64,000 bases of DNA from Spirochaetia bacterium. GTDB taxonomy: Bacteria; Spirochaetota; Spirochaetia; SZUA-6; Bin103. Below the pieces are notes generated by a model that ran no database searches, was not told where the DNA came from, and saw nothing but the letters and a program-made list of their open reading frames with translations. The stretch is taken from the NCBI GenBank assembly GCA_965198005.1, contig CBDAOI010000003.1, forward strand, positions 672,001 through 736,000. The letters run 5' to 3'. Positions 11,028 through 62,573 of the stretch are shown here, in pieces. Every line of letters begins with the position of its first letter. Position 1 is the stretch's first letter. Position numbers and translations under genes: made by a program.

Positions 11028-12839
11028 CTAATGACCCATTGCCTCCTTCAGCTCACTATCAATCCAGAGGCGGGCGAAAAGTGGAATACTGTCCCCGGTT
11101 GGGTCATTTTCACCGTCATAACCTATGATCCACGGCTGGGACACATTAAAACTTGGAACTCTCGGACCCGCGAACCACCAGTGATTCTCTATGAGGTACA
11201 TATTTGCCTCGTTGACCAGCCTCTTCTGCTCCTCAATGGTGGTAGCGGCTTCGGCGGCTTCATACATGGCGTCATAAACCGTGTCGTTGACGTTGGGGGG
11301 GTTCCATCCTGAGGCCGAGTAAGCTCCCGTTAACGGCAGAAGCGCGGGCTGATAGTCGGCGTTTGAAACTTGAGTAACCAGACCTTGCTGCTTATGCTCT
11401 CGCACAAGAGCCGTATAAGCAGTTCCGTCAACTACCTGCACCTCTACAGCAATGCCAATGGCACGCAAGTATTCGATGACTATCTGGTAATAGTCTAAAT
11501 CGAATGGCCCGTAGTGGTCATAGACGGTGCGGAATCTTACGCCGTCCGCGCCGCGAGGTAATCCAGCCTCATCAAGCAACGCTTCTGCCCCTTCCGGGTC
11601 ATAGGTATAGTATCTCTTGAGCTCTTCGGGCCAGTCTTCAAATGGGGTGAAATACCCGATAAGACCTGTCCCTATCTGCCCTGCAGGCGTCGTATCTGCC
11701 CAACCGTGGAAGTAGGTATCGTTAATTGTCTCAAGGTCGACTGCCATCTGTATTGCGCGGCGCACCGTGACGTCGTTCCAGGGTGGCATCTGCACGTTAA
11801 AAGTCATAGCCGTATCCGCACGAAATGAAAATGGCCACAGGTTCAGTTCGGGGTTGGTCCGCTGGAGGCTTACCGCCGTATCGATGCTCCTTATTATTGT
11901 GCCGCCCGCCCGACCGATGTAATCAGCCTTACCTGTACGCATTAACGCCAGATTTGTCGCTTGTTCCGTCGATATCAGGGACCTTATCTCGTCAACATAG
12001 GGCAGGCGGTTCTCGGGGTACTTTTCGTCGTAGCCCCAGTAGTCAGGATTCTTGGTATAGGTGAGGGAACTGCCCTCGACATGGTCAGTCAGCTCAAAGG
12101 GCCCGGTGCCGACCACGTTCCTCCAATCCGTAACGTCGCCGTATTGCTCGACTACCTCGCGGGCCATTATCCATCCGAGACTTCCAAGGAGGATTTCCTT
12201 CAGCGCTTCGAGGCGTATCGACTTCAGCTTAAAGACAACCGTCCATTTGTCGGTGGCCGTTATCGATTCAACATTCATCTTTTCGAGGGGATGAGCGGCA
12301 GCGGCAACATCAAAGCTAGGTTCGGCTTCACTGAAGTCGCCCAGGCCCAATATACGCTGAAAGCTATATTCTATATCCTCGGCAGTTAGCTCCCGACCGT
12401 TCACGGGTGGCTTGTTGTGCCAGTGAACGTCCTGGCGGATGTTGAAGGTATAGGTGAGGCCGTCCGGGGAAATATCCCAGCTTTCAGCCAGCCTCCCTGT
12501 TACGGCAGACAGAGGGACGAAACCTGTCAAAAAGTCAAATACGTCCCTATCTAATGCCCAGTTCCAGTAGCCTAGCTTCTCATTAACACCCGAGATAGTG
12601 TTTGTCGCGGTGTACGAGAAATAGGGGTCAATATTCTTACCGATGTTAGACTGGACTTGGGTGAATGTCCCGCCGTACTCCGGCGCGGTCACCACCTTGC
12701 CGTTGGTGGGGTCGGTCACATACTTCTTGTCGGCGGCGGCTGCCGAGCCCTCCTCTGCGCCACCCGCCCAGAGGCCGGTTGCGGTCAACACGAGGACCAA
12801 CGCAACCGCGAAGGTCATTCTAATTCTTACAATATTCAT
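11028..12839 (-). CDS. ABC substrate-binding protein, family 5 (cassette 1)
   Basis: Signal peptide ...TGLWAGGAEE, LAESWDIS, VGTGPF, KNPDYWG, VRRAIQMAVD. Confidence 0.95.
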   Translation of the reverse strand: MNIVRIRMTFAVALVLVLTATGLWAGGAEEGSAAAADKKYVTDPTNGKVVTAPEYGGTFTQVQSNIGKNIDPYFSYTATNTISGVNEKLGYWNWALDRDVFDFLTGFVPLSAVTGRLAESWDISPDGLTYTFNIRQDVHWHNKPPVNGRELTAEDIEYSFQRILGLGDFSEAEPSFDVAAAAHPLEKMNVESITATDKWTVVFKLKSIRLEALKEILLGSLGWIMAREVVEQYGDVTDWRNVVGTGPFELTDHVEGSSLTYTKNPDYWGYDEKYPENRLPYVDEIRSLISTEQATNLALMRTGKADYIGRAGGTIIRSIDTAVSLQRTNPELNLWPFSFRADTAMTFNVQMPPWNDVTVRRAIQMAVDLETINDTYFHGWADTTPAGQIGTGLIGYFTPFEDWPEELKRYYTYDPEGAEALLDEAGLPRGADGVRFRTVYDHYGPFDLDYYQIVIEYLRAIGIAVEVQVVDGTAYTALVREHKQQGLVTQVSNADYQPALLPLTGAYSASGWNPPNVNDTVYDAMYEAAEAATTIEEQKRLVNEANMYLIENHWWFAGPRVPSFNVSQPWIIGYDGENDPTGDSIPLFARLWIDSELKEAMGH

Positions 12840-12877: not shown

Positions 12878-13400
12878 AGCGGATTGCCGCTCCCTGGCTA
12901 CTCTAACGCCCGCAACCGCGGGCGCGCCCGCAAACGCGGACGGCCAGTCAGAGTCAAATTCCTGAAAGCGCGCGGCGTGTGACTCAGCGGGTTCACCCCG
13001 GGCTCACGCCGCGCGCGCGTGCGGTTCTTTCAGTATCATCTTCACCTCCTTCTCGGGGCACAGGGTGCCGTGCCAGATGGCTGACGTAAGATGGGATCCG
13101 CGTGCGCGCCCCATCATGCAAACGCCCACCGCTCGGCGGAGGTCGGGACCTGCGTCACAACGCCACGCGGGGCGGTGGTCGGCCGAGCAACGCATGTGGT
13201 TGACCGGCGACGTGGGCGGTCGGTTCTGTGACGGTGAGTTGGGGGGCGGGGATCCAGGACCGCTGCGGTCGCAGCCGGCCGCTACCCCGGTGCTGAAGGC
13301 GACGGCGTGCGCGGGGGCACGTACGGGGCGATCAGCCGGAGCGGTTAGTTGTTTCTCGGTTCGAAAAAGTGTGTGTGTGTGTGTGGGGGGGGGGGGGTAG
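12878..13400 (-). promoter_or_regulatory. Leader A, copy 1: ~520-nt conserved 5' leader of SBP gene
   Basis: Colinear, highly similar copy at 60195-60740, also upstream of an SBP gene. Confidence 0.75.
13004..13039 (-). CDS. Putative leader peptide MILKEPHARAA
   Basis: SD AAGGAGGTGA; 3 copies in window; stop codon inside 12-bp GC stem. Confidence 0.55.
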   Translation of the reverse strand: MILKEPHARAA

Positions 13401-13461
13401 GAAGCATCGGTTGCGTCACCACCAACCGGTCACTGCGCTGACTGTCGTCGTGGCGCATCAT
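13345..13461 (-). CDS. Putative polyproline uORF MMRHDDSQRSDRLVVTQPMLPTPPPPHTHTHFFEPRNN
   Basis: Same frame and C-terminus as 60696-60803 across a different-length C tract. Confidence 0.5.
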   Translation of the reverse strand: MMRHDDSQRSDRLVVTQPMLPTPPPPHTHTHFFEPRNN

Positions 13462-14128
13462 CCTCATCCGTTCGATCCCCGAACTCCCTATCGTTTCACG
13501 GTCGCCCAATGATATCAAGCGCGGACTCCGGCGCTTCCGGCCGCCCGCCAGCGTCGCCGCCACCGGACACCGCCAACCCGTCACTGCGCTGCCTGTCGTC
13601 ATGGCGCTTCATCACCGATCCGTCGAACCCCAGGCGAGGCACGTTAGCATAGGGGCCGCGCGCCGTCAACGACTCGTCGGGGTCACCGAAGGTCACCGCC
13701 AACCGGTCACCGCGCTGACTGTCATCATGGCGTTTCATCACCGATCCGTTGAATCGTGAGCTCGAAGTATGGGGCCCAGCGCAAGAAACGTCAACAGCGA
13801 TTCTGGCCTCGTGCACCTTACCTCGCCCGGCTGTGCAAACGGTTGATGTTGCGCGCGTCACCAACCGGTCACTGCGCTCACTGTCGCCATCGCGCCTCAT
13901 GACCATCCGTTCGATCCCAAAACTCCCTATCGTCACAGGCTCGCCTGACCATGTCAAGCGCGGACTCCGGCCGTTCCGGCCGCCCGTCAGCGTCGCCGCC
14001 ACCGGAGGTTGTGACGTTGCGGGCACCGCCAACCGTCCACTGCGCTGACTGTCATCATGGCGCTTCATCATCGATCCGTCGAACCGCAGCCGAGGCAAGC
14101 TTGCTACTGGGCTGGGTCATGTCGTCAC
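13418..14128 (-). repeat. Tandem array of 5 promoter-containing units (periods 151/126/162/168 bp)
   Basis: Conserved ~60-bp core (ccaaccggtcactgcgctgactgtcatcatggcgcttcat); -35/-10 pairs TTGATA-17-AACGAT, TTGACG-17-TAACGT, TTGACG-17-CATACT, TTGACA-17-GACGAT, plus one degenerate. Confidence 0.85.
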
Positions 14129-14479
14129 CCATACACATGCGAGCATAGACCAGCGCGAGAGGCGTGGCAAGCGCTTTGGGCAGCGTGGGCAGCGTGCACC
14201 GCTTCTCGGTGAACGGCTGGTAGAGGGGCAGAGTGTCATAAGCTCAAGCCCTCCGAATGTGAAATGCGACCATACCCACCTGTTGGCCCACCGAGTGAAT
14301 GCACGGCCCAATACTATAACTTATTGTAGGTGATGTAGTTAGCACCGTCAAGCAGCCCGGTGCGATGGGGTGCATTCCGTCTGTGTGGTAGCGCACGGGA
14401 CCGACAAGAGCGGTGTCACCGAGATCGAGCATGGCGGCCAGCGCGGCCAGGGAACCGCCAACTCCGCCGGCGATGGGCG

Positions 14480-14509
14480 TTGACACCGAAGAAGCCGCGC
14501 GGATATGTT
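14480..14509 (+). promoter_or_regulatory. sigma70-like promoter of rpn gene
   Basis: TTGACA-18-TATGTT, 15 nt before ATG 14525. Confidence 0.5.
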
Positions 14510-14524
14510 CGCCATCGGGTCGTC

Positions 14525-15559
14525 ATGGCTGACGAGCGGGCAGCACAGCAACCGGACGGTGGCGCATCGGAGACGGCGGTCAGCCAGCCGCACGACAAGT
14601 ACTTCCAGCGCGTGTTCTCGAACGCGAAGGACGCGGCCAGTCTGCTGCGCACCTGTGTGCCGGGCGCGCTCGCCGACACCTTGAAGTGGTCGACGCTGAG
14701 CCTGCTGCGGGGTCGCTTCGTGGATGACGACTGGCGGCGCAACGAGACCGATATGCTGTATTCGGTGGAGCGGGAGGGTACGGAGCCGGCGGTGCTGGTG
14801 TACGTACTGCTGGAGCATCAGTCGACGCCGGACCCGTGGCTGCGGCTGCGGTTGCTCGGCTACTGCGTACAGGTGTGGCAGGAGTGGCGGCGGAAGCACC
14901 GGAACGAGGAACGATTGCCGCTGCTGGTGCCGCTGGTATTCTACCAGGGAGCGCGACGGTGGGAGTATACGCGGGAATTTGCGGACTTGGTAACGGAGGC
15001 GGCGCCGGAGTGGCGGTGGGTGCCGAGGTTCGAGCATCTGCTGATCGACCAGACGGAGAAGAGCGCGGAATCGGTGACGGGCGCGGTAGCGGCGCGGCTG
15101 TTGCAGATCGCGATGATGGCGGCGTTTCGGGAAGCGCCGGGGAAGTTGCTGGAACGGGCGACGCGGTTGATCGGGGAATTGTACCGCGCAGCGGGGTTTG
15201 AGGAAGTGACGCAGCACGTGGAGTACGTGCTGGCGACGCAGCCGGAAGCACAGCGGAAGCTGTTTGCGGAGGCGTTGCAGAGGAACGTGCCGGGCCGCGG
15301 AGGAGAGGTGATGAATTACGTGGAAGAAATGATCGAGCGAGGGCGCCGGGAAGGGCGTCAGGAAGGGCGCCGGGAAGGCCGCCAGGAAGGGCGCCGGGAA
15401 GGCCGCCGGGAAGGGCAGGTGCGAGCCATCGAGGGGTTCGTGGCACGAGATATATCGTGGTCCACCATCGAAGAGGCCACGGGCATCGACGAGGCCACAT
15501 ACCGGCGCCTCAGGCAGCGAATCGACGCGGAAGACAACGGGGCAGATTCCACCGTCTGA
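14525..15559 (+). CDS. Rpn/YhgA-like PD-(D/E)XK nuclease (putative transposase)
   Basis: QPHDKYFQ, ETDMLYSV, LLEHQSTPD, LVPLVFYQG, C-terminal (EGRR/EGRQ)n repeats. Confidence 0.9.
   Translation: MADERAAQQPDGGASETAVSQPHDKYFQRVFSNAKDAASLLRTCVPGALADTLKWSTLSLLRGRFVDDDWRRNETDMLYSVEREGTEPAVLVYVLLEHQSTPDPWLRLRLLGYCVQVWQEWRRKHRNEERLPLLVPLVFYQGARRWEYTREFADLVTEAAPEWRWVPRFEHLLIDQTEKSAESVTGAVAARLLQIAMMAAFREAPGKLLERATRLIGELYRAAGFEEVTQHVEYVLATQPEAQRKLFAEALQRNVPGRGGEVMNYVEEMIERGRREGRQEGRREGRQEGRREGRREGQVRAIEGFVARDISWSTIEEATGIDEATYRRLRQRIDAEDNGADSTV
15311..15559 (+). CDS. Putative intragenic RpnS antitoxin (in-frame internal start)
   Basis: GGAGGAGAGG immediately before in-frame GTG-ATG at 15308/15311. Confidence 0.6.
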   Translation: MNYVEEMIERGRREGRQEGRREGRQEGRREGRREGQVRAIEGFVARDISWSTIEEATGIDEATYRRLRQRIDAEDNGADSTV

Positions 15560-52391: not shown

Positions 52392-53438
52392 CTACACACC
52401 GGCAACGGACGGGCGGTACTCCAAGCGGCTCGTGCGCCCCGAGCGCAAGAGCAGGCCCTTGTCGACCAGGACCTTGAGGTCACGCTGCAGGGTCCTGCGC
52501 GGAGTTCCCGCACACAGCCCCTCGAGTTCGACGATGGTGGTCCGGCCGCCGTCAAGCACATGCCCCAGGATAAGTCCCTGGCGAGCCGTCAGGCCGTGCC
52601 GGCTGGCGAGCAGGTCGCGCCGGATGGCCAGTTCTCCTCGTCGCTTCACCTCCGTGAGCTGGGTAGCGAGTCCCTCGGTGAAGAATTCGATCCAGCCGGT
52701 CATGTCCATGTTCGCTTGACGTACGCCCTGAAGCGCTCCGTAGAAAGCCAACCGGTCGCGGTCGTAGTACTCGCTGATGGTAAAGAGTCGCTTGAAGTCG
52801 TAGCCGGCGCGGTAGAGACACAGCGTCGACAGAAGTCGGGAGGTGCGTCCGTTGCCATCGAGGAACGGATGGATGTGCACGAGCTGGAACTGGGCAATGG
52901 CACTTACGATGACGGGATGGATATCGCGATGACCGTTCAGCCAGGCCACCAGGGCGCGCATGAGATCCGGCACCTCGCCGGGCGGTGGAGGCGTGTAGAT
53001 CGTCTCACCGGTGGCCGAATTCACTACGTAGTTCTGCACTCGCCGGTATTCCCCCGGCGCAGCCGCACCGCCTCGAACGCCGTCTACCAGTTGCCGGTGG
53101 ATCTCGCGGATGAGCCGCTCCCTGATCGGTGTTCCTGCATTGAAATGAGTGCTCACGAACTCGAACGCACGGCGATAGTTCAACAACTCGCGCGCGTCGT
53201 CCGGATCGGCACCGGGAACCTCCTCTCCTCCCAGTACCCGCGCAGCTTCGTCGAGCGTGAGTCGAGTGCCCTCGATATGTGTCGTGTGATGCGCTTCGAG
53301 CAGGAAGGCTCGCGAGCGCATCGCACCGATCCAGTCCTCCGAAAGCGTGGCCGCCTCCAGGAATCCGCGAGCCCGCTCGATCTGCGTGAGAGCTGAGGCA
53401 ACGGCGTTCGTGATGGAGAATCGCGGAGTGAATGTCAC
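52392..53438 (-). CDS. Fic protein with N-terminal inhibitory motif and C-terminal wHTH
   Basis: TTHIEG (S/TxxxEG), [27 protein letters not shown]. Confidence 0.9.
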
Positions 53439-58709: not shown

Positions 58710-60194
58710 TCAGAATCCCATTTCCCGCTTCAGATCCTGATCGATCCAGAGGCGCGAGTAGATCAGGGAACGGTCCATGTCGCCGGGGTCGGCCTCGCCG
58801 TTGTAGCCCTTCACCCATGGCCAGAACACGTTGAACTGCGGCACGCGCGCGCCCCAGATCGCAACGTGCTGACGGTTGAGATAATCTGAGGCCTCCCTCG
58901 AGAGCCTCTGGCGCTCCTCCAACGTGGTGGCCGCCTGCACGCGGCTGACCATCTCGTCGTAGACCGGATCGTTGAGGAATGTATGGCTCAATCCCGCGTA
59001 GCTGACGTGACTCAGGAGCTGACCCGTGGGATTCCATTCGTATCCAGAAACCAACATGCGGAGGTCGTAGTCCTTCGCGGCGCGCCGAGCGTTCACTACA
59101 GCCCCCTCGAGATAGGAGATCGTCACATCAATGCCGATCTCTCGCCAGCCCGCCGCCAGGAGCTCATTCCAGCCTTGGTCGCCCCACGTTGGTGTAGAGA
59201 TCATCTCCATCTCGAAGCGGGTCCCGTCGGCGCCGCGCGATAAGCCGGCTTCGTCGAGCAGCCTCTCGGCCTCGGCCGGATTGTAGGAATACGCCGCCTT
59301 GAGGTCCGCCGGCCAGTCCTCGTAGCGAGTCATGTAGGGATACAGGGCACGCCCCATCCACCCCTGTGGCTGGGTGACTGCATAGCCCTTGAAGTAGGTC
59401 TCGCCCCAGCCCTCGATGTCGAGGGCCAACTGCAGGGCGCGGCGCACGCGGACGTCGTCCAAGGGGGGCTTGCTCGTGTTGACTAGGGGGGACGTCTCAG
59501 ATCGGTACGAGTAGGCCTCCACGACGATGTCGGGGTTGGTGCGCTGCAGGCTCTCCATCTGGTCGATTGACGTGATCTGCGCATTGCCATGGAAGCCGAG
59601 GAAATCGACCCTTCCGGAGCGCAAAGCCGCCAGACGCGTCTGCGACTCCGGCATCACCTGCATGTTGATCGTATCGATGTAGGGCAGCCGGTTCTGTGGG
59701 AACTTCTCGTCGAAGCCCCAGTAGTCAGGGGCCTTGTCCCAGGTGATGGAGCTGCCTTCCACCCAGTCGGTAAGCTCATAGGGTCCGGTGCCTACCAGGT
59801 TTTGCCAATCGCCGATATCGACTCCGGTCCCCGCCTGAATCACCTCTGGCGGATAGATGAACAGCACGTTTTGCGTCAGGAGCGTCTTCAGCGCGTCGAG
59901 GTTCTGCTCCGCCAGCTTGAAGACGACGGTGTTGCCCTGGGCCGTTACGGAGGTGATGCCGAGGTCGTCCACGGACGCCACGGCGGCGACGCCTTCCGGT
60001 ACCTCGGTGAAGCCGCTGCCGAGCCCGAGGTAGCGGTGGAAGTTGAACTCCACATCCTTCGCGGTCAGCGCGCGGCCGTTCATCGGCGCCTTGTCGTGCC
60101 AGTTCACGCCCTGACGGATGTGAAAGACGATGGTGGTCGGGTCGGGCTGCTCCCAGCGCTCGGCCAGGCGGCCGACGATGATGTCGTCGGGCGA
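58710..60194 (-). pseudogene. Family-5 SBP lacking start and signal peptide (cassette 6)
   Basis: PDDIIVGRLAERWEQ fused directly to leader A at ~60195. Confidence 0.85.
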
Positions 60195-60740
60195 AGCGGA
60201 TTGCCGCTCCCTGGCTACTCTCACGCGCGCAACGCTTGCTGCCAGTCTGAGTCAAATTCTCAGCAGCGCGCGGCGTGTGACTCACCGGGTTCACCCGGGC
60301 TCACGTCGCGCGCGCGTGCGGTTCTTTCAGTATCATCTTCACCTCCTTCTTGGGGCACAGGGTGCCCTGCCAGATGCCTGACGTAAGATGGGATACGCGT
60401 GCGCGGCCCATCATGCAAACGCCCACCGCTCGGCGGGCGTCGGGACCTGCGTCACAACGCCACGCGGGGCGGTGGTCGACGAAGGAGCGAGTCTGAATGG
60501 CCGGCAACGCCGGCGGTGGGTTTTGCTGGCAGTCGGTCGCGGGCGGGGATCCGCGACGGTTGCGGTCGCCGGGAAGGGCGCGCGCGGTCTGCATGCCGGT
60601 TCGGCGATGGACGGAGCCGGTGCCACCGACAGCTACGGCGGTGGTGAAGGCGACGGCGTGCGCGGGGTCGCGTAGGGGGCGATCAGCCCGAGCGGTTAGT
60701 TGTTTCTCGGTTTGAAAAAGTGGGGGGGGGGGGGGGGGGT
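60195..60740 (-). promoter_or_regulatory. Leader A, copy 2 (uORF MILKEPHARAT 60301-60336; G18 tract 60722-60739 on +)
   Basis: Homologous to 12878-13400. Confidence 0.75.
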
Positions 60741-60803
60741 ATGATGCAACTGTCGCGTCACAGCGAACCGATCACTGCGCTGCCTGTCATCGTGACGCTT
60801 CAT
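60696..60803 (-). CDS. Putative polyproline uORF MKRHDDRQRSDRFAVTRQLHHTPPPPPHFFKPRNN
   Basis: Manual translation; same termini as 13345-13461. Confidence 0.5.
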   Translation of the reverse strand: MKRHDDRQRSDRFAVTRQLHHTPPPPPHFFKPRNN

Positions 60804-61245
60804 GACCATCCGTCAAACCCCAGGTGAGGCACGCTAGCATAGGCGCGGCGCGCCGTCAACGACTCGTGGGGGTCACCGGGGTGAGCGAAGGTCACCGGCA
60901 ACCCGTCACTGCGCTGACTGTCATCATGGCGCTTCATCGGCATCCGTCGACCCCAAGCCAAGCATGATAGCGTGGGCGCGGCGCACTGTCAACGACTCGG
61001 AGCTCACCAAACGTGACCGCCAACCGGCCACTGCGCTGACTGTCATCATGGCGTTTCATCACCGTTCCATCGGACCCCAAGCGAAGCAAGCTTCGCTCTG
61101 GACGCGGCCACCCTGTCAACGACTCGGACGTCACCGACCGTGACCGCCAACCGGTCACTGCGCTGACTGTCGTCATGGCGCGTCATCATCGATCGGTCGA
61201 ACCCCAAGCGAGGCAAGCATGCTATGGACGCGACCACCCTGTCAA
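60759..61245 (-). repeat. Tandem array of 4 promoter-containing units (periods 134/122/127 bp)
   Basis: Same core as 13418-14128; TTGACG-17-TAGCGT, TTGACA-17-TATCAT, TTGACA-19-GAAGCT, TTGACA-18-CATGCT. Confidence 0.85.
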
Positions 61246-61614
61246 CAGCGCCGACCCGTGCAGCCCCGCCGCCTCGAACCGGGCGACCATGGTGTCGGCC
61301 TCCGCCAGGCTGGCAGCCATCGGCTTCTCGCACACGACATGCGCGCCATGATCGGCGGCCAACAGCGACAGTGCTGCGTGGCTCGACGCATGCGTCGCGA
61401 TGGCGACGATGTCGAGATCCTCCGTGCGGAACATCTGCGCCGCGTCGGCGTAGCTCGTGACGCCCGGCCAATCCTGCTCGGCCCGTGCGCGCGCCTCCGC
61501 TACCTCATCGGCGACCGCGACCAGGCGGATGCGCTCCAGCCCAGCCATCACCTCCGCGTGGCGGGCCCCGAGGTTGCCGTAGCCGACCCCGGCGCCGCGA
61601 TACCTGCTTTCCAT
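61246..61614 (-). pseudogene. Gfo/Idh/MocA oxidoreductase, N-terminal half
   Basis: GVGYGNLG, LVAVAD, HVVCEKPMA. Confidence 0.85.
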
Positions 61615-61643
61615 TCGGCGAGCGGTAGCTGGGCGAAGCCGAG

Positions 61644-62573
61644 CTACGCCTGCTTCTTCACCGGCTCGCGGCCGAGGCGCCCCCCGCCACCCCGCAGCCG
61701 CGGGTCGAGCAGGTCTCTGACCGCGTCGCCGAACATGTTCAGGCAGTACACCAGCACGGTCAGGAAGATGCCGGGCCAGAACGCCAGCCACGGCGCCTGC
61801 TCCATGTACTCGCGCCCTTCGCGGCTCAGCATCCCACCCCAGCTGGGAACCTCCAGTGGCAGACCGAAGCCGAGAAAGCTCAGCGAGGCCTCACTGATGA
61901 TTACCGCACCGATGTTGATACTGAAGACGATGATCACCGGCGCGACGATGTTGGGCACGACGTGGCGAATCAACGTCATTCCCCTCGATGACCCAATCGC
62001 CTCGGCCGCCTGAAAGTAGACATTCTCCTTGATGGCGATGACGGCGCTGCGGACCACCCTCGAGCCGCCGATGCCGCCGGTTACGCCGAGGACCACGATG
62101 GTCTGCACCAGCCCCTGCCCGACGATGGACATGATGGTCAACAGGATCAGCAGTCCGGGTATCGATACCCAGGCATCGACGAATCGTTGGGTCGCCAGGT
62201 CCACCTTACCGCCAACGAAGCCGGAGGCACCGCCGATCACCAGGGCGACCACGACGTTGAGGGCGGTCGCGGCCAGGCCAACGGTCAGCGAAACCCGCGC
62301 GCCGTAAATCAGGCGGGTCAGCAGGTCGCGTCCGATATGATCGGTGCCGAGCAGAAAGCGCGCCGAGGGCCCGCTGAGCCGATCGGCCAGGCTCATCTCC
62401 AGCATTCCGTAGGGAGCCAGCGCGTCGGCGAAGATGGCGGTCAGCGCGAACAGCACGATGATGATCCCACTGGCGGTTCCCAGGGGTTTCTCCTTCCACA
62501 GCCGAGCGAAGAAGTAGGCGGCGCCGGTGCGGGTCTTCGGCTCGCTCACCGCGGTGGTCTGTCTGTCACTCAT
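61644..62573 (-). CDS. OppC permease (cassette 7)
   Basis: Family motifs. Confidence 0.95.
   Translation of the reverse strand: MSDRQTTAVSEPKTRTGAAYFFARLWKEKPLGTASGIIIVLFALTAIFADALAPYGMLEMSLADRLSGPSARFLLGTDHIGRDLLTRLIYGARVSLTVGLAATALNVVVALVIGGASGFVGGKVDLATQRFVDAWVSIPGLLILLTIMSIVGQGLVQTIVVLGVTGGIGGSRVVRSAVIAIKENVYFQAAEAIGSSRGMTLIRHVVPNIVAPVIIVFSINIGAVIISEASLSFLGFGLPLEVPSWGGMLSREGREYMEQAPWLAFWPGIFLTVLVYCLNMFGDAVRDLLDPRLRGGGGRLGREPVKKQA

Follow-up and report, generated by a model that had tools for sequence, protein, structure and literature searches.

Why would a tandem array of promoter-like repeats keep a start codon and a reading frame in every unit? The question is raised by an array at 60755-61249 on the minus strand of the window (the whole stretch of 64,000 nucleotides of Spirochaetia bacterium DNA that was analysed), for which an earlier note, made from the sequence alone, had proposed units consisting of a promoter, a constant N-terminus and a variable tail, forming either a peptide library or an amplified 5' end of a poly-Pro upstream ORF. 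The host of these arrays is a sponge-associated spirochaete, and the arrays precede nutrient-uptake (peptide-ABC binding-protein) genes.

The arrays of the window and their surroundings

Four minus-strand units of about 126 bp do make up the array at 60755-61249; their ATGs stand at 61186, 61059, 60937 and 60803, with periods of 127, 122 and 134. Unit 1 (61046-61245) has a -35 box TTGACA at 61245-61240, a spacer of 18 bp and a -10 box CATGCT at 61221-61216, and its frame runs from the ATG at 61186 over 46 codons to a stop 11 nt beyond the ATG of unit 2 (period 127), a hand-over that is not clean. In unit 2 (60934-61119; TTGACA at 61119, 19 bp, GAAGCT, ATG 61059) the frame of 41 codons ends in a TGA (60936-60934) overlapping the ATG of unit 3 as ATGA; the same overlap is found where the 45 codons of unit 3 (60800-60992; TTGACA-17-TATCAT, 11 of 12 consensus bases, ATG 60937) end in a TGA (60802-60800) at the ATG of unit 4, and ATGA overlaps thus make up two of the three junctions. 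The terminal unit 4 (60696-60859) shows TTGACG-17-TAGCGT with a TG extension and the ATG at 60803, from which the frame traverses a poly-C tract. The ATG and the frame described in the earlier note are present in all nine units of the two arrays in the window, and the distance between -10 and ATG, given there as 27-30 nt, was measured as 26-29 nt past the end of the best -10. The six differences from consensus in unit 60759-60803 do all lie at third codon positions; read from the sequence, four of them are silent and two change a residue (S to R, L to F). This unit is the extreme case among 68: such a pattern occurs in only two of 43 distinct cores with at least four differences, namely in this unit and in a near-identical sister type. 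Periods that are not multiples of 3 are a property of this array, but the statement fails genome-wide, where the period at 39 of the 91 junctions is divisible by 3 and 36 junctions read through in frame. A single long repeat protein was rejected as well: the 126-bp type fuses in frame, but 52 of the 91 periods are not multiples of 3, and no Pfam match was obtained.

Downstream of unit 4, a tract of 18 C (60722-60739, minus strand) determines the frame of the leader ORF, and the leader body (60337-60721, minus strand) is open in one frame without stops from the tract to a mini-ORF (60301-60348, minus strand), which has a strong Shine-Dalgarno sequence from 60348 and 11 codons (60336-60301). As assembled, the 18-C tract sets the head out of frame with this open body, and the frame of unit 4 stops after 35 codons. 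In a sister copy that was folded, the mini-ORF ends, stop codon included, within one of the arms of a long hairpin (251-nt region, z -3.1); the U-tract expected of an intrinsic terminator was not found after the stem, and no terminator-like site was detected on the minus strand within 60100-61700. The family-5 solute-binding protein gene that follows (58710-60194, minus strand) has neither a start of its own nor a signal peptide, and its N-terminal part is missing too: the leader ends (60211-60195) directly against sequence from inside the gene, which is about 90% identical to G000:C1:190973. At the other end, a truncated 5' fragment of a Gfo/Idh/MocA oxidoreductase gene (61222-61611, minus strand; 98% identical to G000:C3:920766-921154) runs into unit 1 and is cut at the first promoter of the array; about 11 bases at the cut agree with the flank normally seen upstream of other arrays. 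The locus also includes permease genes that share 97% identity with those at 48-50 kb. It is a patchwork of duplications and truncated genes, and this copy of the array may be decaying, with its binding-protein gene being truncated, though permease genes follow. A permease pair and its adjoining DNA exist in three copies of 97-98% identity (48.1-50.5 kb, 61.6-64 kb and G000:C3:737932-738893).

The other array of the window (13345-14125, minus strand) has five units, with ATGs at 14068, 13900, 13738, 13612 and 13461; units 1-4 are fused in a single frame, and the unit with the ATG at 14068 has no good -35 (ACGACA). A 13-C tract is present at 13397-13385, and the binding-protein gene behind it starts at 12838 and has its N-terminus. 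The ORF directly upstream of this array (14360-15559, plus strand), with a C-terminal EGRRE/EGRQE repeat, presumably resembles Rpn/YhgA-like nucleases. The window also contains two matches to group II intron D1-D4 (RF02003; 32207-32378 and 34059-34230) and a Fic-domain gene (52392-53438, minus strand; PF02661, PF13784).

Promoter motifs, start codons and junctions across the family

A profile search of the genome with nhmmer returned 155 matches, among them 145 copies at E<=1e-5, which fall into 50 clusters of 1-7 units, each unit being 115-177 bp long. A match to a family-5 binding protein starts at most 1.5 kb downstream in 36 of the 50 clusters, the units mostly lying several hundred bases upstream of the gene, and the genome holds about 164 family-5 binding-protein loci. 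Among 40 relatives searched, units were found in five (DNA search) or seven (profile) of the 10 from the same genus, three of these 10 genomes being less than 90% complete, and in none of the 30 others. The database records that bear the core are Spirochaetia bacterium MAGs, and the RNA runs containing part of the window include sponge metatranscriptomes. Arrays with a shared upstream flank differ in unit number (3/5/5, 5/4, 6/7 and 1/1/7); these are paralogous arrays, not alleles, and a search of the genus with the upstream flank gave permease genes but no orthologous array alleles. Linkage decays with distance inside the unit, which indicates recombination between units. The core itself as a recombination hotspot was rejected, since the conserved block shows no drop in linkage (0.11 vs. 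0.084 elsewhere).

The proposal that each unit joins a promoter to a start codon is supported by both the promoter motifs and the kept ATG. The units display the marks of sigma-70 promoters, i.e., a TTGACA-like -35, a -10 with A(-11) and T(-7), and 16-18 bp between them: of 143 units scored (two others had no recognisable head), 130 match the -35 at five or more of six positions, 128 have A(-11) and T(-7) as well, and 127 have a spacer of 17 or 18. Within units, 107 of 114 occurrences of TTGAC[AG] are followed 17-18 bp on by a -10 of this kind, vs. 468 of 3392 elsewhere in the genome, the copies being non-independent, and the signature persists across unit types with unrelated spacers. The arrays are ordered by type, the GAGAGT type standing mostly first, CAAGCT mostly in the middle and TTGACG-17-TAGCGT last in 17 of 32. 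Poor -10 boxes are common (CAAGCT in at least 40 units), and units that carry them may be silent. Four RNA runs yielded contigs over the array, the leader and the gene, with depth summed over paralogues, so that no level or start can be read from them. RNA/DNA contig depth was compared at a sister locus, the upstream flank of which likewise occurs in several copies. In run X5 it climbs from 0.03-0.11 ahead of the first promoter to 0.3-0.5 on the promoter and 1.0-2.8 beyond, remaining high over the internal promoter, and in run X2, from a separate study, it was 0 upstream and 0.08-0.17 after the predicted first start, which is expected some 7 nt past the -10; these depths are relative to two runs without a library record, and contigs show neither starts nor levels. 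The step in depth hints, if weakly, that transcription begins at the first promoter and continues across the array.

The ATG is kept in 137 of 145 copies of this genome and in 105 of 124 copies of its relatives (those at fetched loci, part of their total). It is followed by A (position +4) in 229 of 241 cases although the second codon may encode K, T, M or R, so that ATGA is kept. The Shine-Dalgarno sequence in front of the ATG is weak (median -3.3 kcal/mol vs. -2.7 for random ATGs); the figure of -5.9 kcal/mol for the best of several in-frame starts is biased. The claim that the core behaves like a coding start holds in a weak form: in codon models omega is lowest of six frames in the ATG frame (0.42-0.49 vs. 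0.69-3.0 in the other five), yet the signal is weaker than that of a true coding control. When columns were swapped among positions with the same base, the permutation p was 0.030 for the genome's own cores (71), 0.029 for relatives alone (75) and 0.008 for the pooled set (138), with family-wise values of 0.15, 0.12 and 0.047, respectively; a looser core set gave 0.021, or 0.068 without codons 4-5, and neither half of the core was significant alone. Cores bearing indels (39 of 145 in this genome) were excluded from these tests. With a z of about 2 the core ranks below binding-protein coding sequence (3.84) and the mini-ORF (2.54), and above the promoter part (best 1.17) and the leader body (-0.95). 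Changes that create stops are depleted (1 vs. 7.1 expected, p 0.025). Internal and terminal units have about equal coding signals (z 1.86 vs. 2.31), and 75 of 82 distinct internal cores retain the ATG. The tree-based figures are weakened by the recombination among units, and coding gives no explanation for the third positions of codons 6, 8, 10 and 12, which are nearly invariant. CpG hypermutation as a source of the two most frequent silent changes is disfavoured, CpG not being depleted (observed/expected 1.17). On the opposite strand, a CxxCH-like word was attributed to chance, because variation falls on the His codons and there is no synonymous excess in its frame (omega 0.78-1.05, p 0.47).

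Successive units are joined in a characteristic manner. Of the 91 junctions in the genome, 36 are fused in frame, 26 show the ATGA overlap (-4), seven a one-base overlap (-1) and one abuts, whereas 19 frames stop early and two later; a hand-over (fused, overlapping or abutting) is thus present at 70 of 91. Against a null in which the frame is shifted at the seam, hand-over occurs in 66 of 87 distinct junctions (27.7 expected) and, in relatives, in 26 of 51 (14.3 expected), the remaining 25 having none. After clustering, the excess amounts to 37.4 of 77 vs. 20.7 at 90% and to 18.3 of 49 vs. 12.8 at 80% (p 0.016). Distinct period lengths are spread evenly over the three frames (12/10/13), suggesting that much of the excess derives from a few amplified junction types.

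The leader frame behind the last unit

The part of the earlier note that saw in the units an amplified 5' end of the poly-Pro upstream ORF is supported, since the ATG of the last unit opens a frame across the poly-C tract. We counted leaders in which a mini-ORF lies no more than 700 bp from a unit head; the tracts, whose homopolymer lengths are possibly assembly errors, stand in mixed phases. In this genome, 13 of 26 leaders read from the head to the stop of the mini-ORF as assembled, and 17 bodies are open in that frame (null 3.9), the corresponding numbers for 37 leaders of relatives being nine and 22 (null 6.4). Among leaders whose tract has at least seven C, eight of 13 here have a body that stays open into the frame of the mini-ORF (null 2.1) and five read through as assembled; in relatives the numbers are 15 of 18 (null 3.0) and seven. 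A rough scan from the first ATG after a promoter-like site, which may pick out-of-frame ATGs and is superseded by these counts, had given read-through in 17 of 50 here and eight of 42 in relatives. The bodies range from 158 to 428 bases; 28 of 41 keep the frame here, or 17 of 30 when each length is counted once (p 0.007), as do 18 of 26 in relatives. Lengths vary yet the frame is kept, which suggests that the frame is conserved and not a protein; no amino-acid selection on the leader frame was detected in the family (z -0.95). The leader ORF thus contains a simple repeat, with frames that end at different distances from a hairpin.

The leaders of the arrays at G000:C4:358489 and 380060 are interrupted by longer insertions, possibly of the group II intron kind. 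Genome-wide, at least six unrelated types of promoter-plus-ATG head, together with other simple repeats (e.g., of 7-8-mers), precede the same mini-ORF leader.

A proposed ribosome relay and its alternatives

We regard it as rather probable that the unit is a promoter-plus-start module, and that the arrays amplify the 5' end of the leader and relay ribosomes into a leader switched by the poly-C tract. Most likely, this 5' end (promoter, short untranslated stretch, start codon and first 16 codons) was amplified and shuffled. Several promoters would be active with additive effect, so that the type and number of units would serve as a volume control. Initiation at the unit ATGs, passed on at the coupled junctions, would give the longer transcripts from upstream promoters a cover of ribosomes that protects them against Rho. 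Such cover would matter because Rho loads on untranslated RNA (PMC12548453) and is encoded in this genome. Ribosomes from every unit would end at the last ATG, where the tract sets their fate: slippage may decide whether they arrive at the hairpin of the mini-ORF and thereby change the output of the operon. Judged from the sequence, the frames of the units would be translated and the poly-C tract would switch the leader, while the start codon and frame are what is kept and the peptide looks unimportant, the unit peptides probably being by-products under weak constraint. More tentatively, the system might be a contingency device with two dials, in which recombining arrays set the strength of dozens of uptake operons, coupling serves as the relay, the poly-C tract turns operons on or off, and a putative factor binds the invariant core.

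The conserved core might, however, be read without translation, as a non-coding binding site among stacked promoters, either a repressor operator past the start or a site with CAG/GAY repeats for an RNA-binding protein, common to the uptake regulon and with the internal ATG and frame incidental. Near-invariant third positions in the block of codons 6-10, imperfect palindromes with repeated GTGAC/GTCAC words, the weak Shine-Dalgarno sequence and the weak coding statistics are what such a site would lead us to expect; it does not predict that omega is lowest in the ATG frame, nor the depletion of stop changes, the hand-over at junctions or the open frame to the mini-ORF, and we therefore think it rather unlikely as the whole explanation, although it is compatible with a promoter-plus-start module, in which the invariant bases of codons 6-10 leave room for it. 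Still less likely is a neutral or selfish tandem expansion, with the last unit alone functional (as promoter and leader start) and the upstream copies being gene-converted by-products of slippage or recombination. Recombination among units would fit this explanation, as would the dominance of few junction types among the copies with distinct periods even by frame, the patchwork nature of the 60755-61249 locus and the confinement to part of one genus. It is difficult to reconcile with internal units that keep their ATG and a coding signal near the terminal size, with promoter motifs that persist in unrelated spacers, with arrays ordered by type and with a hand-over excess that survives clustering.

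We consider a peptide library, in which the products of the units would share a constant N-terminus and differ in a functional tail, very improbable. The kept ATG, an omega of about 0.45 and the 123 distinct products predicted from 136 ATGs (83 of at most 60 aa) may seem to recommend it, but the tails are the next promoter read in whichever frame, 338 of 520 inferred changes are non-synonymous, and the indels in the 145 cores are frameshifting in 18 and in frame in another 18, three more cores being truncated. Product lengths range from 8 to 479 aa, with stop, length and frame not conserved; no Pfam family was found for the unit products, no hydrophobic stretch in 75 short products and no named homologue for 30 candidates (lengths of 44-140 only), the 21 hits being to unnamed clusters of 1-8 sequences, and the ribosome-binding site is weak. 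The library proposed in the earlier note is thus unsupported. Nor do we give much credence to a tandem structured RNA (a riboswitch or small RNA array), which is largely refuted: the conserved core does lie in the transcribed part and is found in RNA libraries, but Rfam gave no match at gathering score (two chance-level matches had E 1.2 and 3), the consensus fold of 50 units has four pairs, none with two-sided change (covariation term 0.05), and the top mutual-information pairs of the core include no covarying complementary pairs, without a consensus structure on either strand.

The relay of ribosomes from promoter-plus-start modules has partial counterparts elsewhere. In the pil1/pil3 leader of Streptococcus gallolyticus, a repeat in the leader ORF shifts the point at which the ribosome stops with respect to a hairpin in front of the operon (PMC3894217); both systems have the simple repeat and would share the importance of translation rather than of the peptide. 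As described there, however, pil1/pil3 has one promoter and two loci, whereas here promoter-start modules are stacked before dozens of uptake operons, the repeat is a homopolymer, a mini-ORF with its own strong Shine-Dalgarno sequence is added and the folded hairpin lacks a U-tract. Promoter tandem repeats at dop, lpdA and cysG of Mycobacterium tuberculosis vary in copy number and have been proposed to tune expression (PMC12817950). They are likewise tandem copies of a promoter segment, but according to that account are near-identical repeats of 54-58 bp at single loci that change in copy number within populations, while our units are diverged, 115-177 bp long, of ordered types at 50 loci and equipped with a start codon each, and differ in number among paralogous arrays. 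The mycobacterial MIRU is a dispersed repeat whose short ORF couples to the following start at -4 (ATGA), delivering ribosomes and not protein (PMC12548453). The same overlap on the next start is found at 26 of the 91 junctions here, which therefore work alike without the units being members of that family; MIRUs, as portrayed in the same source, are a mycobacterial sequence family inserted at the start codons of genes inside operons. Unlike MIRUs, our units carry promoter motifs, couple mutually and feed a leader ORF several hundred bases before the gene. Correia elements of Neisseria are lineage-restricted dispersed repeats that bring a promoter to many genes and are bounded by terminal inverted repeats; the units described here are direct tandem repeats, their ends having been checked by the repeat scan of the window alone.

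The array system works like the pil1 leader, the M. tuberculosis repeats and the MIRU coupling and is a member of none of them. In the open-access literature, with most subscription papers outside its coverage, we found neither this three-way combination before dozens of paralogous uptake operons nor any description from this lineage, while promoter tandem repeats, coupled repeat ORFs and repeat-switched leaders are each known. If the relay exists, a symbiont with about 164 binding-protein loci might try out different importers at different strengths of expression without one regulator per operon, and the arrays would be a natural case of selection on the reading frame and the start-stop overlap rather than on the peptide.

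A second non-annotated repeat of about 300 bp (L110:150-460, G000:C4:2023449-2023759) has 23 matches of at least 200 bp in the genome, eight of which adjoin arrays, and is almost missing from RNA contigs. In the same region (L110:720-812), the promoter and first ATG of a unit run directly into an ORF of six codons, together with the ribosome-binding site of a gene that is not a transporter and possibly encodes an NAD-dependent epimerase. A search with ARAGORN found no tmRNA gene in the 90%-complete assembly. Finally, the same 12-bp internal duplication occurs in 12 unit cores, along with derivatives of 21 and 30 bp, all of them in frame.
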